A DNA stretch of 64,000 nucleotides from Cellulosilyticaceae bacterium (GCA_051656485.1 JBOGBZ010000042.1:12568-76567), one strand, 5' to 3'; positions 28,325 through 60,321 are shown, counted from the first letter of the stretch. Notes: generated by a model from the sequence alone, not told the origin. A program made the numbers and translations.

Positions 28325-28813
28325 ATGCCTAAATTTAATAGATCCCTCATTGAGTATGACGGGGTTTTATCTTATGAAAATGATATTTGTGCTGCCGCTG
28401 TTCCTTGTAGCTTTAAACAATTTAATATTGATATGGAACTTTGTGTACCTTGTCAGAAGCCTAGTATCGAACAAATCGTTAAAATAACAACTGAACCTTG
28501 TGTACTTAAACAAGTTATTATTCGTACACCATGTGGTACCTCTAGTGAAGGGGTTACTTTAACTGGCTATAAACTTTTAGTTATGGGTGAAGTTGGTATC
28601 AAAATTAAATATGTTGCTCTTGAGGCAGAGCAAAGTGTGCACACAGTACATGCAAACATTCCTTTCTGCTCTTCTGTCATTATGCCTTTAGAATTTACTA
28701 ATCTTAGTGCCGTTTCATCAAAAGTATATATTGAGGATGCCTACATCAATCAGCAAGATGAACGTTGTATGTTCGCCAATGTAACTTTGATGCTTGTTGC
28801 ACAATCCTGTTAG
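28325..28813 (+). CDS. Cassette 1, protein A: small SPOCS/DUF3794-like protein
   Basis: 162 aa from the ATG behind AGGAGG (the ORF-track TTG extension was rejected). Pattern LCVPCQKPSIEQIVKI..GYKLLVMGEVGIKIKYVA..VH..IPF..VYIED. About 80% identical to 42687..43175. Confidence 0.75.
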   Translation: MPKFNRSLIEYDGVLSYENDICAAAVPCSFKQFNIDMELCVPCQKPSIEQIVKITTEPCVLKQVIIRTPCGTSSEGVTLTGYKLLVMGEVGIKIKYVALEAEQSVHTVHANIPFCSSVIMPLEFTNLSAVSSKVYIEDAYINQQDERCMFANVTLMLVAQSC

Positions 28814-28825
28814 GAGGTAAGAACA

Positions 28826-29308
28826 ATGTTTAAATATGACTATTCACCATCTACTACTTTGCCTTGCTGTGCAGAGTATTTCAAAGAAGCTGTTATTCAA
28901 GAAATCATTACTCTCCCACAAGAAAAACCAGATATCGAACGTGTTCAAAAAATTATGGTATGGCCTGAAATAGAAGAAATGAAACTTATCCCTACGGAAA
29001 AAGGTGTTTCTAATGAAGGGCAAATCCTAACTGGTCTTAAGCTCCTTGTCAAACTTCGTCTTAAGCAAAAAATACTTTATGTAGCAGACCGTTGCACACA
29101 ATCTCTTCACGCTGCACATTTTGACAATATCACAAACTTATTTATTATCGTTCCTGAAACTATCAATTGTGAATCTACTTGCGCGCTTTTCGCTAAAGGT
29201 CAACTTCGTGTTGTTCCTTATGTTGAAACCGTTCAATTTAGAATGTTAGACGGACGTTGTATCCATAAGTGTGTTTCTGTATTTGTCAACATGGAAGTTA
29301 TGAAATAG
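28826..29308 (+). CDS. Cassette 1, protein B: small SPOCS/DUF3794-like protein
   Basis: 160 aa, TAGGAGG RBS, 12 nt after A. LPQEKPDIERVQKIMV..GLKLLVKLRLKQKILYVA..LHAAHF. Confidence 0.75.
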   Translation: MFKYDYSPSTTLPCCAEYFKEAVIQEIITLPQEKPDIERVQKIMVWPEIEEMKLIPTEKGVSNEGQILTGLKLLVKLRLKQKILYVADRCTQSLHAAHFDNITNLFIIVPETINCESTCALFAKGQLRVVPYVETVQFRMLDGRCIHKCVSVFVNMEVMK

Positions 29309-29328
29309 AAAGAAAGGTGGCTAAAAAA

Positions 29329-30513
29329 ATGATTATCACTAAAACTTCGAACGTATCTGAAGCTGTCGTTGGCGATATTATCACTTACACACTTGATATC
29401 GCAAACAATGATACCTTTGATTATACTGACGTCCTCATTAAAGACTTATTAACACCTGAACTTGACTTTGTTGAAGGTAGTGTCGTTGTTATGGGTGTAC
29501 CAAATCCAACTGCTAGTATTCTAACAGGTATTGATATTGGTGCCCTTCCTGCTGGTGCTACTAGCAAAGTTACTTTCAATGCAAAAATAATTGCTAAACC
29601 TGGCACCAATCCACTTACAAATACCAGCACTGGCTATTTCAAATATTTAAATGCTTCAGGTCAGACAGTTATTGATACTGTAACTAGTAATCCTAACCAA
29701 ATAGATGTTTACTCAGCAGACGTTGTCGTTACAAAAACTGCTGATAAGACAGTTGCATCTTTTGGTTCTATCATTACCTATACTGTAGTTGTACAGAATA
29801 CCGGTGATTTAGATGCTTATTCTGTAAGTTTCAAAGATATGCTACCTAGCTGCCTTGCCTTTATTGCTGATAGTTTTACACTCAATGGTGTTTCTGTTAT
29901 TGATGTCAACCTTGCTCAAGGCGTAGATTTAGGTACAATTCCTGCTGGTGGTTCTGTAACACTTACTTATCAAGGAAAACTTACAAGTGGTACCGGTTGT
30001 GAAATTTGTAATGGTGCCTATGTAGAATATGAGTATGTGCAACCAAATGGTGTAACAGGTACCAAGACATCTAATGTATCAACTATTTGTGTGGAATCTC
30101 GCGTATCCTTCAAGCAACTTATGTTAGACAAATATTGTGAAGTACCATGTGTTAAGCCAAGTATCGAAGATCTTAACGATGAAGTATCTGTAGATATCGA
30201 AATTGTTAATTCTTATCCTATCCAAACATCAATAGGTACGTCTACAAGTGGCCAAACTTTAACCGGCTACAAACTTATCGTTCATGGTAATATTTGTATC
30301 AGTATCGAGTATACTGCAGCACTTGAGTCACAACCTGTTCACTCTTATCATTGTACACTTCCATTTGGTACTTTTATCATCCTTCCACCTGATTACCAAT
30401 TAGGCCAACAAGTTGAAGTAAATGCTATCATTGAAAATGTAGAAGCCGATATGGTAAGCCCACGTGGCGTATTCACAAATATCACCTTACTCTTAGTTGC
30501 TAGATTACGCTAA
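29329..30513 (+). CDS. Cassette 1, protein C: 2x DUF11 repeat + C-terminal SPOCS-like domain
   Basis: 394 aa from the ATG behind AAGGTGG. DUF11 signatures VGDIITYTLDIANN and FGSIITYTVVVQNTGDLDA. C-terminus VPCVKPSIEDL..GYKLIVHGNICISIEYTA..LPFG. Confidence 0.75.
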   Translation: MIITKTSNVSEAVVGDIITYTLDIANNDTFDYTDVLIKDLLTPELDFVEGSVVVMGVPNPTASILTGIDIGALPAGATSKVTFNAKIIAKPGTNPLTNTSTGYFKYLNASGQTVIDTVTSNPNQIDVYSADVVVTKTADKTVASFGSIITYTVVVQNTGDLDAYSVSFKDMLPSCLAFIADSFTLNGVSVIDVNLAQGVDLGTIPAGGSVTLTYQGKLTSGTGCEICNGAYVEYEYVQPNGVTGTKTSNVSTICVESRVSFKQLMLDKYCEVPCVKPSIEDLNDEVSVDIEIVNSYPIQTSIGTSTSGQTLTGYKLIVHGNICISIEYTAALESQPVHSYHCTLPFGTFIILPPDYQLGQQVEVNAIIENVEADMVSPRGVFTNITLLLVARLR

Positions 30514-30529
30514 AGTAATCAGACAAACA

Positions 30530-30558
30530 AAAAGCTAGGATAGCTCTCCTAGCTTTTT
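30530..30558. terminator. Bidirectional rho-independent terminator
   Basis: AAAAGCTAGGA-TAGCTC-TCCTAGCTTTT, between convergent cassettes 1 and 2. Confidence 0.8.
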
Positions 30559-30567
30559 ATTTATTCC

Positions 30568-31755
30568 TTATACCAATACCATGGCCTTCAAAATCAATGC
30601 TATATTTATATAGAAGTTTCTTGCATCAATCATAGAATAACTAGCCTTTTCTATTGTTCCAATAACTTCTACTCTATATCCCTCTCTATAATCAACTGGC
30701 AATACGACAAATGCTCCAAATGGTATCTCACAGTACACTGCATAGGTGTCTTGTGTTATCGTTAGACCTGTATAGGTTACCATAGCCTTGATCACACCAT
30801 TGACTACTGCTTTATTGCCCGTTAAAATCTGCCCCTCATTAGAGACCCCTGATGCAGTTGGTACAACATAAGAATCTAGTATCTCCACCGATGCATTAAT
30901 TCCAGTTATATCTTCTATATCTGGTTTTTGACTTGGTACGCTAAAACTTGAATCTAAAATGATTTGTTTAAAGCTTGCAACCCCTATATAAATTTTGACT
31001 ACATTAGACTCCCACATTTTTGTAACAGTACAATTACTTCCCTGTGCGTAATTACCTGTAACAGTAGCTATATTCCCTATACATCCACTGACAGACCCAC
31101 CTATTACTTTTACACCAAAACTAATAATAGCTGAACTTCCACTTGTTAAACTCGGAATGCCAATCCCTTGTGTGATGTCTCCATTCACAACAAGTTGATT
31201 GTTCATCGTCAAAGTTTCCGGCATAAGTACAAGAGCTGGATTAAGCATATCCTTAACAAGCAAATTACTTACATCTACATCCCCTTGATTTGTAATGGTA
31301 ATCGTAAAATAAAATACATCTCCTAATTTTACCGCTGTCTTACTAGAAGCCTTTGTAATACTTAGCGCTGACTCCATAACCACTAGTGCTGCACCCTCAC
31401 TAGTGACTGTCTTACACTGTGGATAAAGCATCCCCTCTGTTTGATAACTATAGTTTCCAGTTGCTATATTTGTAATAGTTCCATCACCTTTTTGTAGAAC
31501 ATCTGCCTCAAATCTTATAGATGCCATACCTCCTCCTGGAATGGTTCCTATAGGAATACCACTTCCAAGATTGCCTGGATAAATACTTCCATTTACATAT
31601 AAACTGCCATCTACAAGCTTCAGCTCCGGTGGTAATGTATCTGCAATGTTTACGTTATTAATAGTAAAGGCATCATTATTTATTACTTGAAGTGTATAAG
31701 TTACGCGATCGCCTACTTCTACTACTTGCTTATTAGCTAATTTATTAATTAACAT
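30568..31755 (-). CDS. Cassette 2, protein C: 2x DUF11 + C-terminal SPOCS-like domain
   Basis: 395 aa. VGDRVTYTLQVINN and LGDVFYFTITITNQGDVDV. C-terminus VPSQKPDIEDI..GNKAVVNGVIKAMVTYTG..IPFG. Confidence 0.75.
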   Translation of the reverse strand: MLINKLANKQVVEVGDRVTYTLQVINNDAFTINNVNIADTLPPELKLVDGSLYVNGSIYPGNLGSGIPIGTIPGGGMASIRFEADVLQKGDGTITNIATGNYSYQTEGMLYPQCKTVTSEGAALVVMESALSITKASSKTAVKLGDVFYFTITITNQGDVDVSNLLVKDMLNPALVLMPETLTMNNQLVVNGDITQGIGIPSLTSGSSAIISFGVKVIGGSVSGCIGNIATVTGNYAQGSNCTVTKMWESNVVKIYIGVASFKQIILDSSFSVPSQKPDIEDITGINASVEILDSYVVPTASGVSNEGQILTGNKAVVNGVIKAMVTYTGLTITQDTYAVYCEIPFGAFVVLPVDYREGYRVEVIGTIEKASYSMIDARNFYINIALILKAMVLV

Positions 31756-31779
31756 ATGGCTCTCTTCCCTCCTATCTTT

Positions 31780-32253
31780 TTAAATCATTACCATATCCAA
31801 GAAAATAGCTACACACTTTTGAATTGTTCTACAATCTATTACACGTGCATGAACTTTTTCAATATATGGCTTCACTTGAATTCTTCCACCTGTTACTAAA
31901 TCACATATACTTATGCCTCCTATTTCTGCTGGAGGGACAATATAAAGCACCTTTGTTACTTCGAAATGTGCACCTTGTACTGGCTGTGTTGGTTGACATC
32001 CTACATACAGTATCTTTTCTCTTAAAAGTACTTCTACAAGAAGTTTATATCCCGTTAAATTCTGTCCCTCATTGGATGTTCCCGCTTCTGTGTTTATAAG
32101 CTGTATATTGGTGACTATTGGATCTACCATCACATCTACAATTCGCTCAATATCCAGCATATTCGTATCTAGTACGAGTATTTCCATAATTGTTTCTTCT
32201 TTGAAATATTTTGGGTTTGTGGGAAATTTACTTCCACTCACATTATATGCCAC
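31780..32253 (-). CDS. Cassette 2, protein B: small SPOCS-like protein
   Basis: 157 aa, GTG start behind AAGGAGGAGG. GYKLLVEVLLREKILYVG..QGAHFE. Collinear with the other B proteins. Confidence 0.7.
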   Translation of the reverse strand: MAYNVSGSKFPTNPKYFKEETIMEILVLDTNMLDIERIVDVMVDPIVTNIQLINTEAGTSNEGQNLTGYKLLVEVLLREKILYVGCQPTQPVQGAHFEVTKVLYIVPPAEIGGISICDLVTGGRIQVKPYIEKVHARVIDCRTIQKCVAIFLDMVMI

Positions 32254-32268: not shown

Positions 32269-32742
32269 TTAATTTCTCGCAGTAAATAGTGCCATTACAT
32301 TATAGAAAAAGCATCTGCAATTCATTGCATTGACATGAATGTCTTCTATAAATACTTGAGGTTTTCCATAAAATTGTGCACTATAACTTTTCGGTAAAAC
32401 AATATACTCACAAAGTGGTACAACAAAATGTGCTGTATGAACAGTTCTAGTCTCATCACATGCAACATACTGAATCTTTAACTTGAGTTCTCCTACCATC
32501 ATTAGCTTGCATCCCGTTAGTTGCTGCCCTTCTATTGATGTACCTATAGGTGTTGCAACTGTCTCATAGTGTTGAACATTGACTGCTGCCCATACTTTTA
32601 CCATTTGCTCCATATCAGGCTTACATGCTGGAATACATAGAATTCCCTGCAAGTTGCTTTGCTTATAGTCTTTTTTGGTGGTACAAAGTGGTATACCACT
32701 TATCCCCTCATACTGAATAAGATCTCTCATTTTGCTACTCAT
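32269..32742 (-). CDS. Cassette 2, protein A: small SPOCS-like protein
   Basis: 157 aa from ATG 32742. LIQYEGISG..IPACKPDMEQMVKV..GCKLMMVGELKLKIQYVA..VH. Confidence 0.7.
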   Translation of the reverse strand: MSSKMRDLIQYEGISGIPLCTTKKDYKQSNLQGILCIPACKPDMEQMVKVWAAVNVQHYETVATPIGTSIEGQQLTGCKLMMVGELKLKIQYVACDETRTVHTAHFVVPLCEYIVLPKSYSAQFYGKPQVFIEDIHVNAMNCRCFFYNVMALFTARN

Positions 32743-32782: not shown

Positions 32783-32810
32783 TATCATATGCTAATTTTC
32801 CCCATTAAGT
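32783..32810 (-). promoter_or_regulatory. sigmaK-type promoter-like motif for cassette 2
   Basis: Minus strand reads AC-N17-CATATGATA, 41 nt upstream of ATG 32742. Confidence 0.4.
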
Positions 32811-34209: not shown

Positions 34210-34213
34210 GAGT

Positions 34214-35220: not shown

Positions 35221-36738
<1,518 letters not shown>

Positions 36739-38654: not shown

Positions 38655-40166
<1,512 letters not shown>

Positions 40167-46764: not shown

Positions 46765-46848
46765 CTCATTCTCCTTTCCTATTTCCACAAGTGTATTAAA
46801 TGATAGGTAATTAATCCCTTATATATTATGCAATGATTACCATTTTTG

Positions 46849-48042: not shown

Positions 48043-48067
48043 TTTGTTCCCCCCAATTGACACACTT

Positions 48068-48560: not shown

Positions 48561-49040
48561 CTAATACACCTTTGTACCACAAAGTATCATTACATTATAA
48601 AAGAACCGCTTATCATCTAGTAGTTTTATATAACTGTCTAAAATATATATAGTGGGATACATATAGGGCAACAAATTAGTCTGTGCTGGTAAAATAATAT
48701 ATTCTGAAAATGGCTTCCTAAATCGTGCCGTCTGTACTTGACTTTCTATATGGGTATTCAAATATTCCACTCTTAATTTCAAATCCCCTACAATAAGCAT
48801 CCTTTTGCCTGTAAGATGCTGCCCTTCTACTGATGTTCCTCTAGGTGTATCTATCACTTCATAGTGTTGTATATCTACTTCTGCTTTACATTTGATGATA
48901 TCTTGGGCATGATAGTTTTTGTCCATCAGGTAGCCTACGCCTTCTAGCATACCAATCTTCGTGCCATACTGCATTAGATCTTCTTCCTGGGGTATACTTA
49001 TTCCCTCATACTTAATAAACCTTTTCGTTTGTTCTACCAT
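48561..49040 (-). CDS. Cassette 4, protein A: small SPOCS-like protein
   Basis: 159 aa, GGGGGGAG RBS. FIKYEGIS..GKRMLIVGDLKLRVEYLN. Confidence 0.7.
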   Translation of the reverse strand: MVEQTKRFIKYEGISIPQEEDLMQYGTKIGMLEGVGYLMDKNYHAQDIIKCKAEVDIQHYEVIDTPRGTSVEGQHLTGKRMLIVGDLKLRVEYLNTHIESQVQTARFRKPFSEYIILPAQTNLLPYMYPTIYILDSYIKLLDDKRFFYNVMILCGTKVY

Positions 49041-49206: not shown

Positions 49207-52200
49207 TTATATTTCTATTGTGATTTCTGACCATACTTCAACCTGTCGTTTGTTCATCAAATTAATGGCTTTTTGCGCCACTTCAACGTTGATTGCTTCA
49301 GCTCCTTTTGGTTCAGTCCCATAAGCAACTTTTTCAACTAATAATTTTTCCATTGATACTTCCTGAAGTGTCTTTTTTTCGCCTGTCACATAGCTTAATA
49401 CATACTGTATTTGCATTGCTACTTCTAGTTCTTTTGTTTGTTCATTTTTATGACGGATGCCTACAAGTGGTACACTAATCTTTACCTCCCTTACTTCTGT
49501 TATATCTGGTAAGCTTGCAGGTATGACAAAAACTTGGTTCTTAGGTATTTTCTTTGTATAGGGTGAAAGTACACCTAACTCATGTATAGCACTTGTGTCC
49601 CCTTCCCAAAGTGCTTGGTCTATCAATCCATATTTATAACTTACCCGCATTTCGTGCGCTAATCGCTTCTCTTTATAGCCTAGCATCACTTCGTTGCATT
49701 GAACCTTTACTTCTTCTCCCGGTTCTATAATCCCTATATTAATTCCTTCTTGTAGCTGTTGTATACCTATTCGCCTATTTTTGGTGAGCATATTCCCATC
49801 CACATATTTCATCTCTTTTGGTACGGTATACTGTATTTTGACTTCTTTGATGGAGATCGTACCTTTATTAATTAATGACAGCATATAGGTAACTCTTTCA
49901 CCTGTTTGTACTTTCTTCCCTTCTTTATCAGAGCTAATCCCTACTTCTAGATGAACGGTCTGTACCGTCAGTTCTATACGTCTTCCCATATCACTTCCAC
50001 CTACTACTTCTTGCCTTACAAGAAAATGATAACTTACTTCTGGTACGAAGGTTATATCACCTCCTTTAAGAGGTCCTATAACTTTTACCTTCAACGTCTC
50101 TATAAGGGTTTCTTGTTTTGCCAAGCCTTTCTCTATGCGATAAGGTGTCTTATCTTCTAGCTCAAAGTATGTCTCTGGGAGCAATTTGCCTAAGTCGATT
50201 TGTCCTGCATCTTGTGTCCCTCTATTGGTCAATCTTACTTTGACATCTAATACTTCTCCTATTAATGCTTCTTTTGTTCCTAAGTCTACTTCAATATCTA
50301 TTTGAGGTGCTACAACTTGTAAGCTATGGCCTATTGGCGTCGTTGTCTTTTGACGCAACTCTTTCGGATTGACTTCTGACTCATAGGTCAGGTATGTTTT
50401 GTCTTCCCACTTTCTCTCATCATTTAAAGCATCTACATACCCCTCAAAAGAGATCGTTGTACTTTGCAAAGCTTCTAGCTTCCCTACGCTTATTTCACTA
50501 GAGCCTTGCCACGCCAATCTTTCTTTATGGTCTCTCATAAGACTTTCTTTGATCATTTTGATTCCTTGTGGAAATGCTTGCTTCATGATGATATTGTGTG
50601 CAGCTATATTGCCCTTGTTGGTACAGCGAAGCTCATAGCCTATCTTTTCACCTATTGTCACTTCTTGCGTTGTTAATGTTTTTTCTGCCCATACTTCTCC
50701 AAAATCCACACTTCGTATAGTAGTCACTATCGTCTGAATAGGTAATGTTTCTATTTGTAAAACTTGATATGCATCTTTGTAGCTATAGGTTACCTTAAGT
50801 TTTGTTTCACATAGACCACTGTCTGGTACATCAACCACTTTGCCCCTAAAGCGTATGCATAGGTTCTCTGCTGGCTCTAGTCTCTCCACATATAAGCTTT
50901 GTAACGGTGTCTCTTTTTGATTCACTTCATAGCATGTCATAGAATCTTTTTGCAAGACAATGCCTTCATCCAACTCTATTTTGCCTGTTATGTGATAGGC
51001 CACTATATTGCCATCGTTCTTTAGGTTGACTTGGTACTGGATATACTCTCCTTTTTCTACATATACTTTATCTGCTTCAAAGCACACTTGCCCTTCTTGT
51101 TTTAGACCTGTATCCTCAATACATATACTGCCTTGTGTGGAATAACTTATCCCTTTTTTCAACTTCTTATCTTGCTCGTAGCTATATACTACTTGTGCGG
51201 CTAGTGTCACACAAGGCTCTTTCGGAATTGCCATTACCTCCAGCATTAACTTTTCTTCCCTTATCTCTCCTACCTCTATATAGTCAATAGTGCATGATTC
51301 TATTTCCTTAAGCCAAGGATTCTCTTTTGGGATACTTAGCTTCACATGTTGCATCGGTTTATTGCCTGTATTCTTTAAGTTATAGGTTCCTTCTATATGG
51401 TCGCCTATCCTTGCATGTTTTTTAGCCAAAGCTTGTAAGAAGGCTTCTTGCTGGAGTGGTCCCGCTGTATAAATCATAGCCACTACTGGTTCAGCATTCT
51501 CCACAACCTCACACCTACTCCTAGCTGTTTTTTCTACTTCGTAAACCAATCTTCCGCCTACTATACATCTAGCATCTTTAGATACTTCCATGACTTTTGC
51601 CTTAAATACTAGATGACAGGTACTATCAATAGGCATATCCGGCAACTGAATATGTGATAGTTGGTCATACCTTTGCTCCTGATTGACATAGAGGCTTTCT
51701 GGTAAGAATTGGAGCGTCTTATCTAGTTCTACTTGATAGTGGGGTATATGTGCTGTTGCATTACCTATATTCATCATCTCTATTGTATAAGTCAGTATAT
51801 CGCCCAGATCCCCTATACTTGGTTCTACACTTTGTTTGAAGCTACCTGTGCCTACTTCTATCTTTGGATACAGGATGGTTACTGGATTGCTTTCTATACT
51901 TTCTGTTGCCTCATAGCTTGTTATATCGTCTTCCTTGTATTTATACGTGTAGCTTATATAGCTACAGGGTCTTGCTACTTTTTCTGTTGGTAAGCCTATG
52001 ACTTCTGCTTGGTAACTCATGGTGCATACTTCCTGTGGTCTGATATCGCCTAAGCAAATCTTCTCCCAATCCACAGGCTCTTCTTGACTATATCCTCTCA
52101 CATATAAAGTTCCTGCTCTAAACCGTAGTCCTTCTCCTAATAGCTCTTGGACTGTTACTTTTTGTGCTGTACGATTACCTGTATTGTTGAAGCTTAATGT

Positions 52201-54525
52201 ATAAGTAATCACATCTCCCTTTATCGCCTGCTGACAATCCACACTTTTTTGAATACTTCCTTCTGAGCTTTTCATATTGGCTCCAAAAAGCGCTAGTGTC
52301 TGTGTATCCGTTTGAAAATGCCCCTCTAGTTCTATGCCTTGGCTAGTCTTGAATTGATAGTTCAGTTGTAGCCATAGGTCTATCTTTTCCTCTTTTACAA
52401 AGGTATCTACTTCAAAAATATATATTTTTTGAATACGTTCGCCACGATCCATCTTAGGAATAGTTAAGGCTTCATGTCGCCACTTGCCTCCTTGTTGCTC
52501 TGGTAGGATTACCTGTATATCAAAGGCAGGTATATTCCCTGTATTTTCAAGCACAAGTTCGTAACTTAGCTCCTCTCCTAACGCAGCTAACACCTTACTC
52601 GCCTTTAGACTTCCTTGTATTTGTGCCATTTCGATGACTGTTTGACATGTATCTTCCTGCTCCCTATAAGTATGCCTTTCTTCACCTAATTGATAGTTGT
52701 AGTGGACCATTGTTGTTGGACAAATACTACATCCTACATCCTTAGTTATGATTTTTGCCTCATAGGATACTGTTTTTTTTGCACCTACTGGAATATCACC
52801 AACTTCTATACCACCTTCACTTGCAATGGCATGGTCTACTAAACATAATTTTTCATCTATCACTTCTTTCAGTCTTACATTTTGTGCAGGCAAGTTCCCT
52901 TTATTATGAAGCTCTATGGTATAGTGTAGGCTATCTCCTAATTGTGCTACTTTTTTGTCCACCCTTTTTACGAGTCCACCTTCTGCTACGGACAAAATAG
53001 GCATTTGCACCACAAGCCCCTCTTCGTGGAGTAAAGTCATTTCTTTTTTTATACGTCGCTTATTGAGTGCGTACTCATAGTTTATTTTTGCTCTTAATTG
53101 TACTATTTCTCCTTTTGGAATGGCATGTGCTTGTATGCTAAAGGGTATCTGAAGACTTTGGCTAGGTAGGATGTTATCCCCTACACGTATCACTTGCTCT
53201 GTACTACTTACTTCTTTTGGTAGTTCTATAAATACCTGTATTTTTTCGACTGTTTGATTACCTTCATTGATAAGCACAATCGTACCTTCTACTGTTTCAT
53301 GCAGTGGTACCCTCTTCTTTTGTAATGTAATAAGAGAAGATGCTTCTTTATTCTGATACAGAATACCACCTTCTACCCACACAGTATCTTTTATTAGGCT
53401 CATCTCTCTTTGTACTTTTTGATTATTTTTCTCATAGCTATATACAAGTTTTCCATTTTCACCTATTGGATTTTTCCTAGGAATTTGTTCACCTACTTGT
53501 AGGCTATAGACCAAATGCACCGTTTCCCCTGATGCTATATCCCCTAACAAAATCCCATCTTGTAGGGTACCTTTATTTTTGGGGACGCCATTTATAAGTA
53601 CACTTTTGGGTATCCACTGTGTTCCTTCTGGTATCTTCTCTTGATAGTATACTTTTTCTGCTTGTTTGTTCCCTTTGTTGGTAAACCAAAGTGTATAATC
53701 GATGCTATCGCCGACTGTACATTGCCTTACCGATACTGTTTTTTGGATGCCACCTAATGTTTCTTGGAAGGTAGCTGTTTCTATTGCAATAGAGTGGGGT
53801 TTTGTGGTGTAATTTTGAGACACCATTTGCCGATTTGCAAAATAAAAATCATAGCTTAATTGCATCTGATGACTTAATTCATAGCTGTCTGGTATCGTCT
53901 TACATACCATCTTATAGGTCACTTCATATTGTTGTCCTACCTCTAGCTGCTTGATATGAAGTTTGGTCTTCACCTGATCTTCTTCAAGGAGTATACAGTA
54001 TGGGTCTACTATCGGTTGAAGCCTGACATCAAAAGCAGACGTATTACCTCTATTCATAATTGTTAATGTATAGTTTATTTCATCCTCTATATCAATGACT
54101 TCCTTGTCGCGTTTTAATATGATACTTCCCATCTCTTCACTTAAACAAGGGTCTGTTATAAGTGTAATCACTGTATTACTTTGGATGATTTTCTTGTGTC
54201 CATCTTTTTCTAGCCAATAGGTGGCATCTATTGTATTGGTAAGAGAATGCATCATAGGTATAACTTTGGCATAGCTTTGCCACACTACTGTTTTTCGCTC
54301 ACCTACCCCTAATGGACCTATGTAAACGCCTTCTCTCATATTACCTTGCCAGCTTATTTCTTCTACTGCAAGGGAGTGCTTAATCATCTCCAACTCTTCT
54401 GCGCCATAGCTTACTAATGCTACTTCTTTCACCCCATTTTCTTCATCATTATAGAGTGTTACAGTATATGTTAACGGTTCACCTACAATTGCAAAAGCCT
54501 TATCTACTTTTATATACAGATACAT
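49207..54525 (-). CDS. Giant repeat protein: 13x DUF11 repeats + C-terminal SPOCS-like domain
   Basis: ~1772 aa from the ATG behind GGGGG. I counted 13 occurrences of the DUF11 core ([VIL]G[DE]x[IL]xY[TE][IL]xxxNxGN). C-terminus IPASLPDITEVREVKISV... No signal peptide. Confidence 0.8.
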   Translation of the reverse strand: MYLYIKVDKAFAIVGEPLTYTVTLYNDEENGVKEVALVSYGAEELEMIKHSLAVEEISWQGNMREGVYIGPLGVGERKTVVWQSYAKVIPMMHSLTNTIDATYWLEKDGHKKIIQSNTVITLITDPCLSEEMGSIILKRDKEVIDIEDEINYTLTIMNRGNTSAFDVRLQPIVDPYCILLEEDQVKTKLHIKQLEVGQQYEVTYKMVCKTIPDSYELSHQMQLSYDFYFANRQMVSQNYTTKPHSIAIETATFQETLGGIQKTVSVRQCTVGDSIDYTLWFTNKGNKQAEKVYYQEKIPEGTQWIPKSVLINGVPKNKGTLQDGILLGDIASGETVHLVYSLQVGEQIPRKNPIGENGKLVYSYEKNNQKVQREMSLIKDTVWVEGGILYQNKEASSLITLQKKRVPLHETVEGTIVLINEGNQTVEKIQVFIELPKEVSSTEQVIRVGDNILPSQSLQIPFSIQAHAIPKGEIVQLRAKINYEYALNKRRIKKEMTLLHEEGLVVQMPILSVAEGGLVKRVDKKVAQLGDSLHYTIELHNKGNLPAQNVRLKEVIDEKLCLVDHAIASEGGIEVGDIPVGAKKTVSYEAKIITKDVGCSICPTTMVHYNYQLGEERHTYREQEDTCQTVIEMAQIQGSLKASKVLAALGEELSYELVLENTGNIPAFDIQVILPEQQGGKWRHEALTIPKMDRGERIQKIYIFEVDTFVKEEKIDLWLQLNYQFKTSQGIELEGHFQTDTQTLALFGANMKSSEGSIQKSVDCQQAIKGDVITYTLSFNNTGNRTAQKVTVQELLGEGLRFRAGTLYVRGYSQEEPVDWEKICLGDIRPQEVCTMSYQAEVIGLPTEKVARPCSYISYTYKYKEDDITSYEATESIESNPVTILYPKIEVGTGSFKQSVEPSIGDLGDILTYTIEMMNIGNATAHIPHYQVELDKTLQFLPESLYVNQEQRYDQLSHIQLPDMPIDSTCHLVFKAKVMEVSKDARCIVGGRLVYEVEKTARSRCEVVENAEPVVAMIYTAGPLQQEAFLQALAKKHARIGDHIEGTYNLKNTGNKPMQHVKLSIPKENPWLKEIESCTIDYIEVGEIREEKLMLEVMAIPKEPCVTLAAQVVYSYEQDKKLKKGISYSTQGSICIEDTGLKQEGQVCFEADKVYVEKGEYIQYQVNLKNDGNIVAYHITGKIELDEGIVLQKDSMTCYEVNQKETPLQSLYVERLEPAENLCIRFRGKVVDVPDSGLCETKLKVTYSYKDAYQVLQIETLPIQTIVTTIRSVDFGEVWAEKTLTTQEVTIGEKIGYELRCTNKGNIAAHNIIMKQAFPQGIKMIKESLMRDHKERLAWQGSSEISVGKLEALQSTTISFEGYVDALNDERKWEDKTYLTYESEVNPKELRQKTTTPIGHSLQVVAPQIDIEVDLGTKEALIGEVLDVKVRLTNRGTQDAGQIDLGKLLPETYFELEDKTPYRIEKGLAKQETLIETLKVKVIGPLKGGDITFVPEVSYHFLVRQEVVGGSDMGRRIELTVQTVHLEVGISSDKEGKKVQTGERVTYMLSLINKGTISIKEVKIQYTVPKEMKYVDGNMLTKNRRIGIQQLQEGINIGIIEPGEEVKVQCNEVMLGYKEKRLAHEMRVSYKYGLIDQALWEGDTSAIHELGVLSPYTKKIPKNQVFVIPASLPDITEVREVKISVPLVGIRHKNEQTKELEVAMQIQYVLSYVTGEKKTLQEVSMEKLLVEKVAYGTEPKGAEAINVEVAQKAINLMNKRQVEVWSEITIEI

Positions 54526-54690
54526 ACAATACCCCCTATAAATACTTCTTAACATTATATTAGTACATCCTCTCCTCTATGCACTTTTTACCTACTAGGC
54601 TTGGTTTTTTTTGTATTTTATAAATATTCGTCTTCTATACTGTATATATATATATGGAACTCTATGTACACCGAAGGAGGTATCTATGCA

Positions 54691-55161
54691 ATGTATGCAC
54701 AAGTTTACGATGAAGTTAACTACTCTCTTAATCCCATTTGTGAGGGTCAATCCTCCCATATTTTAATTGAAACTTCTCCTTCAAATATTCGTACCGATGT
54801 CGCTCTCTCTACCAAGCATCATCTCAAATTATGGGGGCAACTCAAAACAGGTGATGCCCTACCTCTTTATAAAGCCTCGGTGATATTGATCCAAGCCTCT
54901 TGTGCTGTTGGCCATATAGAAACACATCAAATTGCTTTTACAAAAACAGATTTAAGTGGCTTTTATTTTTTTGAAGCCACTCTCAATCTAACTGGCTGCT
55001 ATAAGCTTATGATTCAACCTCGTAATCTGAAAAATTGTAAACTCCTTTCTTTAGATTTTACAAATTGCTCCATGCCTGCCTCTTTTAAGAAGCATTGTCA
55101 CCAAATATTACTTCAACCATCTACTACCTCAAATCACGAAAAGGGGGGCTCCTACATATGA
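54691..55161 (+). CDS. Ig-like (carboxypeptidase-regulatory-like) domain protein without Pro stalk
   Basis: 156 aa from the ATG after GAAGGAGG. LKLWGQLKTGDALPLYKASVILIQ..TDLSGFYFFE matches the head domain of the family. The stop overlaps the next ATG (ATGA). Confidence 0.55.
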   Translation: MYAQVYDEVNYSLNPICEGQSSHILIETSPSNIRTDVALSTKHHLKLWGQLKTGDALPLYKASVILIQASCAVGHIETHQIAFTKTDLSGFYFFEATLNLTGCYKLMIQPRNLKNCKLLSLDFTNCSMPASFKKHCHQILLQPSTTSNHEKGGSYI

Positions 55162-55610
55162 AATCCAATGATTTTATCAAGTACATTGGTATTGAAGCAA
55201 AACCTCATATTCATACACCTTATTTCACCCGTGTTGTCTGTAATGCTTCGCTTAAGCTTCCCAATACAGTTCCCTTAATCAAGGAGTTAGCATCTGTATC
55301 AGCCAAGCCAACTGTATCAACTGCCGAAAAAATTCTGATAAAAGCGACAGATGACACCATGGTTGCTAAGGCACTTATTGGTGGGCATATTCATCTTTCG
55401 TTTCAATACGCAACACCTGATCCTAGATATGCACTTTATTTTGGTAATCATTATTTACATTTTGCTGAATATTTAAGCTTGCCCGAGGATCTCTCACCTA
55501 CTGTCACCCTTTTCCCAACGGTGTATATAGAAGATATCTTTTCTCATATGGTTGATTCTACTACGGTGTATCACAACGTTATTTTACTTATACTCATTGA
55601 TTTTGGCTAA
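55158..55610 (+). CDS. Cassette 5, protein A: divergent small SPOCS-like protein
   Basis: 150 aa. FIKYIGIE..LIGGHIHLSFQYAT..VYIEDIFS. Same layout as the other A proteins. Confidence 0.65.
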   Translation: MKSNDFIKYIGIEAKPHIHTPYFTRVVCNASLKLPNTVPLIKELASVSAKPTVSTAEKILIKATDDTMVAKALIGGHIHLSFQYATPDPRYALYFGNHYLHFAEYLSLPEDLSPTVTLFPTVYIEDIFSHMVDSTTVYHNVILLILIDFG

Positions 55611-55623: not shown

Positions 55624-56076
55624 ATGTCATTGAACCCTACATCCCACTTTACTGTTGAAAAATCCATACTAGAATTTTTGCACCTACCTCCACATAAGCC
55701 TGAAGCTATCCAACTTGTAGATTCCCACATTATCCCTACTGTCTTGGACTATACCTTTACTGAAATTCAAAAAGGATTATCCTACGAGGGACAATCCTTA
55801 TTAGGTGTCATACTGGTAATCCATCTATCCTTTGCTGAAAAACTCACTTATCTTGGGCATACAGCTTCTGATACTTTTCACTCTGCACATTATGCTTCTC
55901 TTCGAAGTGTATCTATTGATTTGCCACCACAGATTAAAAAAAACAATACCCTTACGCTCTTAAAGACAGGGAGCTTTACCATCTATCCTTCCATTGAGTC
56001 TATCTCCACCAAGCTCTTGGATGCGCGCTCTATCCAACAAATTTCTTTTCTTCGTGTTACTATTGTTCCTCATTAA
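55624..56076 (+). CDS. Cassette 5, protein B: divergent small SPOCS-like protein
   Basis: 150 aa, AAGGAGG RBS. LPPHKPEAIQLVDS..GVILVIHLSFAEKLTYLG..FHSAHY. Confidence 0.65.
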   Translation: MSLNPTSHFTVEKSILEFLHLPPHKPEAIQLVDSHIIPTVLDYTFTEIQKGLSYEGQSLLGVILVIHLSFAEKLTYLGHTASDTFHSAHYASLRSVSIDLPPQIKKNNTLTLLKTGSFTIYPSIESISTKLLDARSIQQISFLRVTIVPH

Positions 56077-56103: not shown

Positions 56104-59100
56104 ATGTCCGCTGTAATTACTGGTATTGTATTTGATGATACATCTCATAGTGGCATTTATACAAAAGAAAACGCCGGAATTGCCAACGTCTGTATGGTAC
56201 TCCAGACCCCTACTCATACTTTGATAACAACGCTCACTAATCATGAAGGGCATTTTACTTTTGATGTGAAAATTCCTGGAAAATATGTCCTCTATGAACT
56301 GGGCAATGCTACTAAGGATCTTGCAACACTTCCATCAACATGTCCACTTTTATTTGGCTATACAGGTGTTACAACCCCTAGAGCCGCTGTTTTCTCTGTC
56401 TCACTTCATCAAATACATAGTCATATAACCCTGGATGCTTTCTATTTTGGTTATGATTATTCCGAAGCATTTTCGCCTACTGCTGATGCTTATTATATTT
56501 ATCCAAAGGATACAACACTTTATACGCTTAACTTAATAACAGGTATAAGCTCTCCCTATGCAAAACTTTCGCAGTCTGGACACTATAGTTGTGTCGCTTA
56601 TGATGCTACTAGCCATTATCTCTATGGCTATGAACCACTACGACACCAAATTTTTAGGATTACAAAAGAGGGGTTTGTCACCTTCTATACCATTCCTTCT
56701 TTGCCTCAAAAAAAATACACGGCCTGTGCTATTGATGCCAAAGGGCTTCTTTATCTGTATCTGCCTAATGATATGGATATCTATATCATTCAACTAGATG
56801 TTCACTCACCAAATTTTATGCAACTTGTTTTGCCTACACGTCTGACGCCTCTTGTAGAAGATGCTCCAAGTATCGTGACCCATCCTCTTAACCTAAAGGC
56901 TTGGGCATTTCACCCCCATACCCTCTATCTGTATGGCATTACCGAAATGGGGACTGTTCTACGTATTGATGCCAAAAATGGCAGTTCTGAAGATCTTATT
57001 ACAACAGGCACCCCCCTTTCTTCTTGTACATCCTTATTTTTTGATTATGCTGGTGTAATGTATTGTCTTTATGAGAATGCCAACACTCTCTACCGTATTA
57101 GTACGACAGCAAAAGAAGCTATTGCTGAGGTCTTTTGTTCTCTTAAGCGTCCTTTCTTGGGGTGTTGCACCCGCTCTAGCGATATGCCACTCCTTATCCA
57201 TCTAGGCACTGCACCGGACCTCTCCTCCACTAATGCCAAAGGAAATTATAGTACAACTTTAGCCAACAACGGTCCTCGTCATCCATCTACCCATACCTTG
57301 CGCTTTGCTTCTGATGCCTCAGCACCTCATTCGCTACCTTCTTTGCAAATGAGCGAACAAGACTATACCATTGAACTACCCGTTGTAAATCGCACAGGGA
57401 AAAATGCCTTTTTGTATGGTTGGATTGACTTTAATCAAAATGGTGTTTTTGAACCTACTGAAGCTTGCGAAGTTCTAAGTATTCCTTCTCATCCTTCAGA
57501 TATTCAAACTGCAAAACTTGCTTTTGCTCTTTCCAATAAGCTTACACTTTCTGTGGGCGAGACGTATTGTAGGTTCCGTCTGACCACAGATACCCTTTCA
57601 CCTCCTACCTCTACTGATATTGACATGCGTTCCCTTGGTGTGGTTTCTGATGGTCAGGTATTAGACTGTCCTCTATCTATCACCGGACTTCCTCCTAGTG
57701 GTATCACTGCTATCTATGAGGTATGTTTTATGAATGAGCATTTGGCTGGCTCCTGTACATTGACCGATCCTTGCCATGGTACTTTGGTCTATACCTTGTC
57801 AAAACGCCCATCTCATGGTTTGCTCGAGTTAGATACCCACTCTGGCAAGTGGCGCTATACCCCGAAGGCTGACTTTGTAGGTGATGATACCTTCAACTTA
57901 CAGGCTACCTCTTCTACAAGCGGGCTTTTTGAAACGATCCATGTGGTTGTACACACACTTCTTGTATCCCTAGCATTTGAACTTGCTAGCCCAATGAAGG
58001 AAATGCTTACGACTGATGTCCTTTCTTATACATTACGCCTAAAAAACAAGGGGACGATTCCACTTACTCAACTTATGCTTCAGAACTTAATTCCTTTTGG
58101 ATGTGTCTTTGTCCCCCATTCTGCTACTGTGAATGGGCTCCATACATCTACCATAGATTTAGAAAAAAACTTTACCTTAGAGGAACTCTTGCCTTCTGAT
58201 ACCTATACTCTCACTTATCAGTGTGAACTTGCTGCTGAACTGGACCATATCGCCACTACTTGCACTTGTCAGTATACTTACAAAGCGCATCCAGATGCTA
58301 CCTCCACCACTCGTACTACAACCAGTAGTGCCCCTAACATTAATGTTTTTTCTCCACATCTAGTAGTAGATATGGTCTCAGACACCTCCAATGCTTTAGT
58401 GCAAGATACCATTTACCTTACGCTGAAACTTTCCAATGTGGGTACAATACCCCTTACGGATATTCGCATTTATCCTAGACTTGATGAGTCCCTTACTTAC
58501 CAAAATGATTTAGCACTAGATGGTGAGCTTGGCTACACTTCTTTTTTAAGAGGCTATACTATTCCTCATTTAGCCCCAGATACTACCCTTGTATTTACTT
58601 TTTCAGCCACTATCAAACCCCTTGCTCACACCAAAACCTTGTCTTCTTTCTTCAAAACGGAGTTTGCCTATACCGTTAACCATCAAACGTACTCGTCTAC
58701 ACAACATTCTGACAAACATTTACTCAAAGTACATGTACCACCTTTTACATTGACTAAGACACCTTCAAAAATAGATGTTTCCATAGGTGAAGTTTTCACT
58801 TATACCTATACCTTAAAAAACGAAAGTGATCTGCCACTTATGCACGTTGTTATTCAAGATGTACTTCCGGCTTTCTTAGAAGTTATGGAAGTAGCTTCAA
58901 ATGACGGACTTCTTCCTCATACACTTTCTACTGGAATCCCACTCCCTAAAGTGGGTGCTCATCATACAGAATCTTTGGTAGTCCATCTCAAAGTATTAGG
59001 GCGTCCTGATAGTCTTATGGTTCCTTCTATGTGCGAGGCTACTTTCAACATTCAATTGCCTGATACAGATATGCCACGTACCCAAACCCTCTCTTCTGCA

Positions 59101-60321
59101 GCTTCCCAAGATATTTTTGTAAGTGATGCTTCTCTAGTCGTAGACTGCTTACTTTCTACCTATGAGGCTACAATCGGTGAAAGTATTACCTATACACTTA
59201 CCCTTACCAATACGGGTACTGTTGCTTTATGTGAGATTCTCATTCAAGACCTCCTTAGTCCTGAACTCAAATTTGTACCTCATTCTGTCATCATAGGCCA
59301 AACGAAGGACAAAGAAGCATCTCTTATTTCCGGTATTACTCTCAAAAATTTAGAGGTTAATACGTCTCTTATCCTTTCTTTTGAGGTAGTTGTCATTGCA
59401 AAAGTTAGTAAAGAGATTGATTGTAGTTTATCTATTCACTATACCTATGGTGGCCTTCATCATACACCTCTAAAAACAAATCATCTGAAGACCTCTATGC
59501 AACTCCTTCAATTACATCATGTAGGCATTGAAATCAGTGGTAGCATCTCTCAAGACATAGCTTTTTTGAATGATTGTATTGACTATGCTCTAGAAATTCA
59601 TAATACAGGCGATACCCCTGTCTTTAACATTAGCCTTACAAACGATACGCCTTCTTACGATCTTCTAGATAGTAGCTTTAAGTTAAATAATCATTCAATC
59701 CACACTGTGGATTTGAAAAAGGGTATTAACTTAGGTTCTTTAGAGTCTGGCAAAAGTCATCATATACAATACACCGAAAAGATTTCCCATCAGTACTATC
59801 CTTTAGATACGTTGACTCATACCTTCTGTGCCAATTATTCCTATAGTACCTGTGACAACAGGGTCAAATATGGTACATCAGATGTTTTCACTTTGTCCAT
59901 TCCTTTAGCCTTATGTAATTTCAAATGCTTTGAAGTGGAAGGGTATTTTGAACTGCCTGATATGAAGCCCGATTTCTCAACACTCCATTCCCTATCTGGC
60001 ACCATTCATATACTCAAGCACTCTATTATTCAAAATCCTGTTGCTACCTCTTCAGAGGGTTTGCACCTGACCTCTCAGTCTCTTATTGTTCACGGTATCC
60101 TAGAACTTACTACCGAGTATGTATCTGACGAGTCGAATCACACCATCTATTCTAGTCAGCACTCTACTTTATTTAGCACTTATATTGTGCTTCCCGAGCA
60201 TTTCCCAAGTCCTTGCAACATTCGTATTCACCCTACTTTGCAAGTTGCAGCATTCCGACTTGTTAATAATCGCTCATTCTTTGCAAGTACATCTATACTT
60301 GCGATTGTTTATATTAAATAA
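56104..60321 (+). CDS. Cassette 5, protein C (expanded): mosaic 1405-aa protein with SdrD-B/Cna-B-like, GEVED-like and cadherin/VCBS-like modules, 5x DUF11 and a C-terminal SPOCS-like domain
   Basis: AAGGAGG RBS. ITGIVFDD..G..NV.V N-terminus, GWIDFNQNGVFEPTE, HGLLELDTHSGKWRYTPKADFVGDDTF, five DUF11 cores. C-terminus LPDMKPDFSTL..SLIVHGILELTTEYVS. No signal peptide. Confidence 0.75.
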   Translation: MSAVITGIVFDDTSHSGIYTKENAGIANVCMVLQTPTHTLITTLTNHEGHFTFDVKIPGKYVLYELGNATKDLATLPSTCPLLFGYTGVTTPRAAVFSVSLHQIHSHITLDAFYFGYDYSEAFSPTADAYYIYPKDTTLYTLNLITGISSPYAKLSQSGHYSCVAYDATSHYLYGYEPLRHQIFRITKEGFVTFYTIPSLPQKKYTACAIDAKGLLYLYLPNDMDIYIIQLDVHSPNFMQLVLPTRLTPLVEDAPSIVTHPLNLKAWAFHPHTLYLYGITEMGTVLRIDAKNGSSEDLITTGTPLSSCTSLFFDYAGVMYCLYENANTLYRISTTAKEAIAEVFCSLKRPFLGCCTRSSDMPLLIHLGTAPDLSSTNAKGNYSTTLANNGPRHPSTHTLRFASDASAPHSLPSLQMSEQDYTIELPVVNRTGKNAFLYGWIDFNQNGVFEPTEACEVLSIPSHPSDIQTAKLAFALSNKLTLSVGETYCRFRLTTDTLSPPTSTDIDMRSLGVVSDGQVLDCPLSITGLPPSGITAIYEVCFMNEHLAGSCTLTDPCHGTLVYTLSKRPSHGLLELDTHSGKWRYTPKADFVGDDTFNLQATSSTSGLFETIHVVVHTLLVSLAFELASPMKEMLTTDVLSYTLRLKNKGTIPLTQLMLQNLIPFGCVFVPHSATVNGLHTSTIDLEKNFTLEELLPSDTYTLTYQCELAAELDHIATTCTCQYTYKAHPDATSTTRTTTSSAPNINVFSPHLVVDMVSDTSNALVQDTIYLTLKLSNVGTIPLTDIRIYPRLDESLTYQNDLALDGELGYTSFLRGYTIPHLAPDTTLVFTFSATIKPLAHTKTLSSFFKTEFAYTVNHQTYSSTQHSDKHLLKVHVPPFTLTKTPSKIDVSIGEVFTYTYTLKNESDLPLMHVVIQDVLPAFLEVMEVASNDGLLPHTLSTGIPLPKVGAHHTESLVVHLKVLGRPDSLMVPSMCEATFNIQLPDTDMPRTQTLSSAASQDIFVSDASLVVDCLLSTYEATIGESITYTLTLTNTGTVALCEILIQDLLSPELKFVPHSVIIGQTKDKEASLISGITLKNLEVNTSLILSFEVVVIAKVSKEIDCSLSIHYTYGGLHHTPLKTNHLKTSMQLLQLHHVGIEISGSISQDIAFLNDCIDYALEIHNTGDTPVFNISLTNDTPSYDLLDSSFKLNNHSIHTVDLKKGINLGSLESGKSHHIQYTEKISHQYYPLDTLTHTFCANYSYSTCDNRVKYGTSDVFTLSIPLALCNFKCFEVEGYFELPDMKPDFSTLHSLSGTIHILKHSIIQNPVATSSEGLHLTSQSLIVHGILELTTEYVSDESNHTIYSSQHSTLFSTYIVLPEHFPSPCNIRIHPTLQVAAFRLVNNRSFFASTSILAIVYIK

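Follow-up and report, generated by a model that had tools for sequence, protein, structure and literature searches.

What could the products of one ordered trio of genes build together, when a single genome holds that trio five times? The question is raised by a stretch of 64,000 nucleotides (nt) from Cellulosilyticaceae bacterium (GCA_051656485.1, JBOGBZ010000042.1:12568-76567), in the following called the window, in which five cassettes, T1 to T5, lie between positions 28,325 and 60,321. Each comprises genes A and B, encoding small proteins of a single SPOCS/DUF3794 domain, and a gene C, the product of which combines DUF11 domains with a C-terminal domain of the SPOCS type. A preliminary description of the window had taken the cassettes for an apparently undescribed spore-surface system and their products for heteromeric building blocks of it. 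The reading that we favour, if only slightly, is that of a tricistronic operon of sporulation, with expression probably late and in the mother cell, which would encode the three legs of a heterotrimeric SPOCS 'tripod'. Five copies within a single genome are a striking number, and the cassette may offer a handle on how fibrils are anchored to clostridial spores.

The cassettes were all recovered from the listing of open reading frames at the places, on the strands and in the gene order previously given, three of them on the plus and two on the minus strand (Table 1). A and B are indeed small proteins with one SPOCS domain (150-162 amino acids (aa) in the window), and two DUF11 domains followed by a SPOCS tail are found in C1 and C2 as described; C5 has the extra modules ascribed to it, with at least four DUF11 stretches detected where five had been claimed. 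The gaps within cassettes are short, as stated, but range from 4 to 27 nt and not from 10 to 27, and the strong ribosome-binding site attributed to every gene is present as a GGAGG-like element in 14 of them but not in C4, of which the start is uncertain. T1 and T3 share 77-86% protein identity and, over 2.9 kb that take in the shared promoter region and a portion of a divergently oriented neighbour, 76% DNA identity, and from this degree of similarity we take them to be recent copies. The remaining cassettes have 20-48% protein identity in an all-vs-all BLASTP comparison, which is in agreement with the earlier view of deep divergence outside T1/T3 and of an old, maintained paralogy.

Scanning the 15 cassette proteins against Pfam gave significant matches to both of the expected families. 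For PF12673 ('SipL, SPOCS domain'), which has a curated cut-off of 23.6 bits, A1, A3, A4, C1 and C3 score above this value, C2 falls just under it, B1 to B4 reach 16.6-21.7 bits, and in A2, A5, B5, C4 and C5 the Pfam scan gave no match. The Pfam-negative members are tied to the matching ones by all-vs-all BLASTP and by type-specific hidden Markov models (HMMs) built solely from other genomes, with which all 15 window domains score 59-243 bits for their own type; furthermore, precomputed Pfam annotation labels many of the orthologs PF12673. Judging from these comparisons, all 15 cassette proteins carry one SPOCS/DUF3794 domain, and since DUF11 (PF01345) is strong in C1 to C5 (E-values from about 1e-16 to 4e-31), the domain assignments of the preliminary description are borne out. 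The names in use at NCBI are 'SPOCS domain-containing protein' for the C proteins and 'hypothetical protein' for the small ones, C1 and B2 being 100% identical to proteins of a Cellulosilyticaceae metagenome-assembled genome (MAG). An AlphaFold2 model of B1 (predicted local distance difference test score, pLDDT, 91.3) has six long strands of 12, 25, 21, 16, 14 and 14 residues, and in the model of C1 those of the SPOCS tail have 12, 26, 21, 15, 14 and 14. The SPOCS fold is defined as a beta-barrel leg of two three-stranded sheets. The agreement of these six-strand patterns suggests that B has the same fold as the C1 tail in spite of its weak Pfam score. A Foldseek search with the B1 model gave no match below E 0.04. 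The very long hairpins of both models would suit an interlocking between subunits.

The grounds for assigning different roles to A, B and C lie in the domains themselves. A neighbour-joining tree of 48 SPOCS domains separates into three groups, which correspond to the first genes (A), the second genes (B) and the C-termini of the DUF11 proteins (C), giant proteins included; additional paralogs also fall inside these groups, which were defined with that in view. T1, T3 and L1b, as well as T2 and L1a (L1a and L1b being the two cassettes of a second Cellulosilyticaceae MAG), are grouped together in A, B and C alike with 184-200 of 200 bootstraps, and each cassette therefore duplicated and diverged as one unit. 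As the bootstraps of the deep splits are low, the distinction of three types is founded instead on the classification by HMMs trained without window sequences. These place each of the 15 window domains in the right type, with margins of 24-148 bits, and do so even for T4 and T5, which are divergent and lack close relatives in the training set; the Cys-poor T5 thus keeps the three types as well. The A-type consensus starts with 'LIEY.GI' and ends with 'IEDI...D.RC.F.NVTLM', that of B contains 'LP...KYFKE' and 'V.PYIE.V..RMLD.R.I.KCV', and 'PF...I.LP' is common to A and C and missing from B. By these sequence measures A, B and the C-terminal SPOCS domain of C are three distinct and conserved types.

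The order A, B, C recurs in other genomes with proteins of about 157-173, 157-170 and 394-407 aa, and the fixed gene order claimed for the window is thus kept in other Clostridia too (Table 1). In every locus read, A and B occur 1:1 and are adjacent, with 0-3 C-type proteins per A-B pair. Among C-type homologs, some are named from Sarcina and Niameybacter MAGs. A profile search with the B type among 1.84 billion representative sequences returned 843 clusters (50% identity) at E <= 1e-3 and 77 at E <= 1e-30, and the family is therefore widespread but uncharacterised; a genome scan with four B paralogs, which depended on exact patterns, found three loci. Two large genes downstream of A-B-C in C. 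sporogenes LCP25S3_F4 (L003, 6035-9064) resemble a tyrosine recombinase/integrase when read from the sequence, which suggests that this copy sits on a strain-variable island.

The relation between the three types is further illuminated by fusion proteins. The best matches to the B profile carry two SPOCS domains, not one, and in 14 of the 17 multi-domain matches examined the first is of A type and the second of B type, as in the gene order of the window. To these 14 belong nine of the 11 proteins of 326-368 aa, four of 635-661 aa and P0111, of which the N-terminus is cut; in P0086, for example, domain 1 scores 164 bits for A against 66 for B and 93 for C, and domain 2 scores 166 for B against 64 for A and 71 for C. 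The four longer proteins (P0085, P0087, P0088 and P0091) have the two SPOCS domains, A then B, at the N-terminus and a large C-terminal extension, of which some 300 aa look like a beta-propeller when read from the sequence. Similar two-SPOCS proteins are encoded at L002 10474-12450 and L003 3770-5746, and the L002 copy, which lies downstream of an A-B-C cassette, groups with C-type domains in the tree. On two unrelated contigs a SPOCS gene of C type comes next after the gene for an A-B fusion, at a distance of 38 nt in one (L014, where the fusion is P0086; 273 aa) and of 10 nt in the other (308 aa, with a CLIPPER domain), and three SPOCS domains per unit are therefore preserved. Finally, in P0103 from the representative library (1910 aa) three SPOCS domains in tandem, each scoring as C/A-like, come after a long DUF11 stalk; the protein may be regarded as a 'stalk plus tripod' in one polypeptide, comparable to the three-domain SipL. 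Together, the triad in other Clostridia and the A-B fusions followed by a C-type gene support both the spore-surface reading and the notion of heteromeric building blocks.

DUF11 is now named CLIPPER, a stalk domain with an intramolecular isopeptide bond (Protein Sci 2025, PMC12617251; PDB 9IFR). In an alignment of 25 C-type homologs, K5/D39/N98 and K136/D170/N228 are invariant or nearly so, and the Lys-Asp-Asn spacings of 34/59 and 34/58 compare with 33/58 in 9IFR (K715/D748/N806, PMC12617251). The isopeptide triad is thus kept in both DUF11 domains of the C type, in which the bonds themselves are predicted. The AlphaFold2 model of C1, made from the same number of sequences (25), is all-beta with a mean pLDDT of 91, and its Foldseek matches in the PDB are integrin legs, the BcpA pilin, CNA, EbpB and BspA, that is, Ig-like stalks resembling those of pilins and adhesins, several of them with isopeptide bonds. 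As CLIPPER domains are typical of fibrillar adhesin stalks (PMC12617251), as the C1 fold resembles sortase pilins and as C5 has adhesin-like head modules, the cassettes might be thought to encode vegetative cell-surface adhesins or pilus-like fibres which, like most DUF11/CLIPPER proteins, have nothing to do with sporulation. This is very improbable, however, since a crude hydropathy check of 16 proteins gave no N-terminal hydrophobic stretch like that of a signal peptide, as had been claimed, since no LPXTG-type family is among the matches, since the literature found describes SPOCS domains solely in spore-envelope proteins, and since the neighbours of the cassettes are collagen-like, glycosyltransferase and Cys/Pro-rich genes with sigma-K-like motifs.

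Returning to the heterotrimeric tripod, A, B and the SPOCS tail of C would be anciently separated versions of one six-strand beta domain, which would interlock 1:1:1 as a pseudo-threefold base of the shape published for the homotrimers of CsxA, CsxC and CotE and for the three-domain SipL. A heterotrimer would present one projecting arm per base rather than three, and this arm would be the N-terminal part of C, with two Ig-like CLIPPER/DUF11 domains stabilised by isopeptide bonds at their Lys-Asp-Asn triads; in T5 it would be a long stalk with adhesin-like head modules. A-B looks like an obligate core, because the two are always 1:1, adjacent and sometimes fused, and the third socket could take any C-type SPOCS tail, which would explain the extra SPOCS-tailed giants in some loci. 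From the five cassettes would then come five kinds of fibril or nap element, anchored on an outer layer of the spore, be it exosporium, encasement or appendage. There they would sit beside the collagen-like glycoproteins with their glycosyltransferases and beside the D proteins, rich in Cys and Pro, that are encoded nearby. The most far-reaching version of this, in which A-B-C is an obligate heterotrimeric socket with interchangeable C tails and one isopeptide-stabilised fibril or adhesin per tripod, the five cassettes make five fibre types, and the same unit underlies the ribbons of C. taeniosporum and the spore appendages of C. sporogenes and C. botulinum, is put forward tentatively, as something that could well turn out otherwise.

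The main rival explanation holds that A and B each form a homo-oligomeric lattice or layer of their own, as CsxA and CsxC do, and that C-type proteins are minor components, of which one SPOCS tail inserts into a trimer of A or of B, so that the three would be co-regulated structural proteins of a single layer without being obligate 1:1:1 partners. The published models of CsxA and CsxC are homotrimeric, the prediction for F-Anchor-3 has one anchor to two CsxA chains, A-B pairs differ in how many C-type proteins accompany them, and the three proteins of T1 and of T3 are fairly rich in Cys (5-9 each), as might be expected of cross-linked lattice proteins. The strict 1:1 ratio of A to B, their adjacency and their repeated fusion in A-B order would however be unexpected for two independent lattice formers, and three distinct types are maintained even in the Cys-poor T5; we therefore consider separate lattices rather unlikely. 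Another explanation, still less likely, gives A and B a morphogenetic or adaptor role like that of SipL, SpoVID and CotE, in which they would recruit the C stalks to the forespore and might not be major parts of the mature spore. It has in its favour that the Pfam family was defined on SipL, a morphogenetic protein, and that Cys-poor SPOCS proteins have been sorted as organisers (bioRxiv 10.64898/2026.09.03.749163), A5 having one Cys and B5 none. In Pfam terms, however, nothing but SPOCS and DUF11-type domains is found in A, B and C, apart from the adhesin-like modules of C5, and the regions by which SipL and SpoVID are distinguished, LysM and the one that binds SpoIVA, are missing. Moreover, five paralogous sets that each have a C of their own point to structural diversity and not to a single hub of assembly.

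Several observations do not sit easily with the heterotrimeric tripod. We infer the heterotrimer from genomic patterns and from published models of other SPOCS proteins, and searches of the PDB with an A profile and with the C1 sequence gave nothing relevant, no solved SPOCS structure being found. The deep clades of the tree have low bootstraps (A 65/200, B 62/200, C 18/200), because a few long-branch members move. One A-B pair of C. taeniosporum lacks an adjacent C gene and, the C count being variable, a strict 1:1:1 stoichiometry of A, B and C may not hold. The mother-cell promoter motifs claimed for the cassettes are present upstream of T1 and T2, but in T3 the -10 element alone remains and T4 and T5 have no match to the strict sigma-K-like pattern upstream. 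A giant DUF11/CLIPPER protein encoded directly upstream of A4 has no significant SPOCS tail by SPOCS HMM, which leaves its mode of attachment unexplained; its C-terminus keeps a short 'IPASLPDITEV', reminiscent of the start of a SPOCS domain, whereas in L002, L005, L010 and L012 the giants upstream of A-B-C have SPOCS at their C-terminus. A search of the supplementary text of the exosporium proteome of another strain (PMC4942563) for peptides of the A, B and C homologs from C. sporogenes gave none, an absence that is not informative, since the locus adjoins recombinase genes and the strain is a different one.

As regards expression, the strict sigma-K-type pattern AC-N16-17-CATA-N3-TA, a consensus that PMC5749712 takes from work on B. 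subtilis, has 15 matches in the 128 kb scanned, nine of which lie 30-100 nt upstream of a start codon, namely those of A1 and A2, of three genes of the D family, of a collagen gene and of three further small genes. Strong terminator hairpins were not found inside any cassette, and the palindromes between C1 and C2 and behind C3 are nearly identical (AAAAAGCTAGGA...TCCTAGCTTTTT). Promoter and terminator motifs alike are consensus matches, and are to be seen as putative signals for expression as an operon.

Table 1. Cassette genes, putative expression signals and neighbouring genes of the window, followed by loci with the same gene order in other genomes. SipL, PF12673; A-, B- and C-HMM, type-specific models built from other genomes.
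Feature	Position	Strand	Description
A1 (T1 gene A)	28325-28813	+	162 aa, A-type SPOCS, 9 Cys; SipL 32.4 bits, E 1.1e-7; A-HMM 234 vs B 75, C 135
B1 (T1 gene B)	28826-29308	+	160 aa, B-type SPOCS; SipL 18.5 bits, sub-threshold; B-HMM 240 bits
C1 (T1 gene C)	29329-30513	+	394 aa, two DUF11/CLIPPER and C-type SPOCS tail; DUF11 E 1e-24; SipL E 2.2e-8, 34.7 bits
A2 (T2 gene A)	32269-32742	-	157 aa; no Pfam match; A-HMM 233 bits; BLASTP 110 bits to A1
B2 (T2 gene B)	31780-32253	-	157 aa; SipL 21.7 bits; B-HMM 231 bits
C2 (T2 gene C)	30568-31755	-	395 aa, two DUF11 and SPOCS tail; DUF11 E 7e-24; SipL 23.2 bits; C-HMM 185 bits
A3 (T3 gene A)	42687-43175	+	162 aa; SipL 24.5 bits; 77% identity to A1
B3 (T3 gene B)	43189-43671	+	160 aa; SipL 20.3 bits; 86% identity to B1
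C3 (T3 gene C)	43687-44871	+	394 aa; DUF11 E 3e-22; SipL 33.0 bits; SPOCS tail 85% identity to C1
A4 (T4 gene A)	48561-49040	-	159 aa; SipL 26.9 bits; A-HMM 106 vs B 45, C 76
B4 (T4 gene B)	48068-48550	-	160 aa from ATG, alternative start GTG at 48580; SipL 16.6 bits; B-HMM 129 bits
C4 (T4 gene C)	46849-48063	-	404 aa, start codon uncertain; DUF11 E ~1e-16; no SipL match; C-HMM 88 vs A 61, B 31
A5 (T5 gene A)	55158-55610	+	150 aa, 1 Cys; no Pfam match; A-HMM 59 vs B 15, C 35; ortholog in L013
B5 (T5 gene B)	55624-56076	+	150 aa, 0 Cys; no Pfam match; B-HMM 95 bits
C5 (T5 gene C)	56104-60321	+	1405 aa: SdrD_B, DUF6923, GEVED, Big_9, at least 4 DUF11 stretches, SPOCS tail at residues 1254-1405; C-HMM 103 bits
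Sigma-K-like promoter motif 5' of T1	28256-28282	+	ACCTATACGCTATTCGTTCATATACTA; consensus match only
Sigma-K-like promoter motif 5' of T2	32783-32810	-	consensus match only
Palindromic terminator hairpin between convergent C1 and C2	30529-30558	both possible	12-bp stem, then T-run
Terminator hairpin 3' of C3	44887-44915	+	13-bp stem; near-identical to C1/C2 hairpin
Three collagen-like (BclA-type) genes	35221-36738, 36785-38335, 38655-40166	-	Pfam Collagen E 1e-45 to 1e-48; sigma-K-like motif upstream of third
Giant DUF11/CLIPPER protein	49207-54555	-	1782 aa, directly upstream of A4, same strand; DUF11 E 1.4e-66
D gene	27362-28078	-	divergent from T1; beta-domain and CPPP-rich tail, 23 Cys; sigma-K-like motif 28137-28111
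D gene	41843-42457	-	divergent from T3; 79% identity to the D gene at 27362; sigma-K-like motif 42517-42490
D gene	46177-46788	-	directly downstream of C4; sigma-K-like motif 46849-46822
D gene, diverged	54601-55161	+	directly upstream of A5; BLASTP E 1e-9 to 4e-11 to other D; ortholog in L013
D gene	60339-60836	+	directly downstream of C5; 50-52% identity to other D
D gene, most diverged	60876-61469	-	five tandem EEPIQI repeats in place of Cys/Pro-rich tail
L001, second Cellulosilyticaceae MAG			two A-B-C cassettes (L1a, L1b)
L002, L003, Clostridium sp. FAM 1755; C. sporogenes LCP25S3_F4			A-B-C
L004, L005, C. taeniosporum			A-B(-C) sets found by direct sequence match
L007, metagenome contig			two full cassettes and extra small pairs
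L010, L011, Clostridium MAG			A-B-C
L012, Romboutsia			A-B-C
L013			contig syntenic with T4 and T5 of the window

The surroundings of the cassettes are in agreement with the context previously described, as Pfam finds, besides the three collagen-like genes, three GT2-TPR glycosyltransferase genes and two rhamnosyltransferase-like genes in the window. Upstream of the cassettes, at 15509-25395, lie two GT1 genes and genes for a GLUG-motif protein (802 aa), a class-V aminotransferase, a methyltransferase of the FkbM type and a Glyco_trans_1_2 protein, Glyco_trans_1_2 being the family to which CgeB, a protein of spore maturation in B. subtilis, belongs. The glycosylation/spore-surface island thus extends into this region. 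Closest to the cassettes are the six paralogous D genes, which encode an N-terminal beta-domain of about 110 aa (R.WG....D....P...A..KLV) and usually a Cys/Pro-rich tail with CPPP motifs and up to 23 Cys. Five of the six adjoin T1, T3, T4 or T5, and T2 has none. The family has no name in Pfam or NCBIfam, and NCBIfam likewise has none for A, B or the X proteins mentioned below. D homologs flank A-B-C elsewhere too, in L001, L002, L007, L010 and L013 and, by a weak match, in L014, and D might therefore belong to the cassette system as its fourth component. The modular architecture of C5, for its part, recurs in L002, L005 and L013.

Two further gene pairs were observed in the window. The X pair, at 26546-27202 and 40811-41662 on the minus strand, encodes proteins for which no family name was found. 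Their N-terminal halves are rich in Cys and Pro (PCPP repeats; 15 Cys in one protein, 31 in the other), and their C-terminal domains, some 138 aa long, are 73% identical to each other; together with D and A-B-C, X looks like part of a duplicated T1/T3 neighbourhood. The small proteins encoded at 23253-23762 and 61619-61957, likewise on the minus strand, have a Tyr-rich motif in common (..YY..YY.K.NHYY(V/I)T(D/E)Y..), both genes are preceded by a sigma-K-like motif and one of the proteins is Cys-rich (14 Cys). They may be further components of coat or exosporium.

The triad is a concrete and widely conserved candidate for the components or the anchoring of clostridial spore fibrils and appendages, structures that probably affect adhesion, clumping and dispersal, and it is of relevance both to the group of C. 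botulinum and C. sporogenes, food-borne and toxigenic, and to Clostridia of gut and rumen. The proposed assembly rule, three different SPOCS legs and one stalk, would, if true, carry the recently proposed principle of the SPOCS tripod beyond lattices of homotrimers to units that are heterotrimeric and bear a cargo, and would provide a natural scaffold for protein display on spores.

How the cassettes relate to known systems has changed since SipL and SpoVID were the only characterised SPOCS proteins, as the preliminary description still had it, a view that is out of date now that CotE, CsxA and CsxC have been described (bioRxiv 10.64898/2026.09.03.749163). According to that work, CsxA of the exosporium basal layer and CsxC of the parasporal crystal of C. 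sporogenes are Cys-rich proteins with the SPOCS/DUF3794 fold, modelled as strand-swapped trimers ('tripods'), B. subtilis CotE has the same architecture, the homotrimers make up exosporium and parasporal lattices, and SipL was modelled as a single chain in which three tandem SPOCS domains have pseudo-threefold symmetry. The cassettes resemble CsxA, CsxC and CotE in domain superfamily, in envelope context, in having Cys-rich members and in the trimer by strand exchange among three SPOCS domains that would be formed. The latter are however homotrimers of one gene product without DUF11 stalks, whereas the cassettes have three paralogs in fixed order, one of them bearing a stalk. With a profile of the window SPOCS domains CsxA gave no match (E 0.14) and CsxC a marginal one of 13 bits, confined to the central motif, in a search of three sequences, and no open reading frame of the window matches CsxA, CsxB or CsxC at E below 0.08. 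CsxB was considered as a homolog of A or B and rejected for want of similarity, and so was the 44.4-kDa 'uncharacterised (7 Cys)' protein G9EYZ3 of PMC4942563 as a cassette protein, being a different protein.

Another close system is F-Anchor-3 of Clostridium aceticum, with three DUF4183, 0-4 DUF11 and a CsxA-like (SPOCS-fold) domain, which is predicted to heterotrimerise with two CsxA chains and so to anchor the F-ENA spore pilus to the exosporium (Nat Commun 2025, PMC12357932). Like C it combines DUF11 with a SPOCS-fold domain and is predicted to enter a heterotrimer with two SPOCS chains, but its DUF4183 domains, of which none was found in 45 window proteins scanned against Pfam, nucleate F-ENA, and its partner is the lattice protein CsxA, whereas the partners of C would be the products of the dedicated genes A and B. 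SipL of C. difficile and SpoVID of B. subtilis share the PF12673 domain with the cassettes, and the three-domain arrangement of SipL is the one proposed here for A, B and C together; they are however single morphogenetic proteins with LysM and a SpoIVA-binding role, whereas A, B and C are multi-copy and come with adhesin-like stalks. To CLIPPER proteins the likeness lies in the strong PF01345 matches, in the triad at the same spacing and in the fold match to isopeptide pilins, but typical members are secreted by means of signal peptides and have sorting motifs, and the C proteins are without both and end in SPOCS.

The nearest precedent is the ribbon-appendage locus of C. taeniosporum, with the genes CRD1, HYPO1, HYPO2, HYPO3, CRD2, P29a, GP85, P29b and CL2 (Cambridge et al. 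2018, PMC5749712). HYPO2 (158 aa) and HYPO3 (160 aa) resemble the C-termini of the CRD proteins, CRD2 (413 aa) has DUF11, the major appendage genes P29a/b (DUF11) and GP85 (a collagen-like glycoprotein) lie next to these, and putative sigma-K promoters are present in the locus (PMC5749712). By the description in that paper, HYPO2-HYPO3-CRD2 matches A-B-C in order, in size and in internal similarity; the main appendage proteins P29a and P29b, which are DUF11-only, have no counterpart in the window. Our profile search of protein libraries did not return HYPO3, and the two other A-B(-C) sets of C. taeniosporum have 50-52% identity to B2. The paper reported no orthologs in other clostridia, and SPOCS, the three types and their conservation were not recognised there (PMC5749712). 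Undescribed, as the cassettes had appeared to be, is thus correct in so far as no publication was found on the A-B-C triad as a conserved unit, on its three domain types or on the fusions, but it does not apply to HYPO2-HYPO3-CRD2 or to the related F-Anchor-3.

By sequence, then, the cassettes are members of the SPOCS and CLIPPER families and not of the CsxA/CsxC, F-Anchor-3 or SipL/SpoVID groups, the defining features of which they lack, and by analogy they most likely work like CsxA/CsxC, F-Anchor-3 and SipL-type proteins. The parts, the SPOCS-tripod principle (2025-2026) and, in one species, the HYPO2-HYPO3-CRD2 genes were already known, and what would be new is the three-gene arrangement as a unit and, with it, a heteromeric and cargo-bearing version of the SPOCS tripod.

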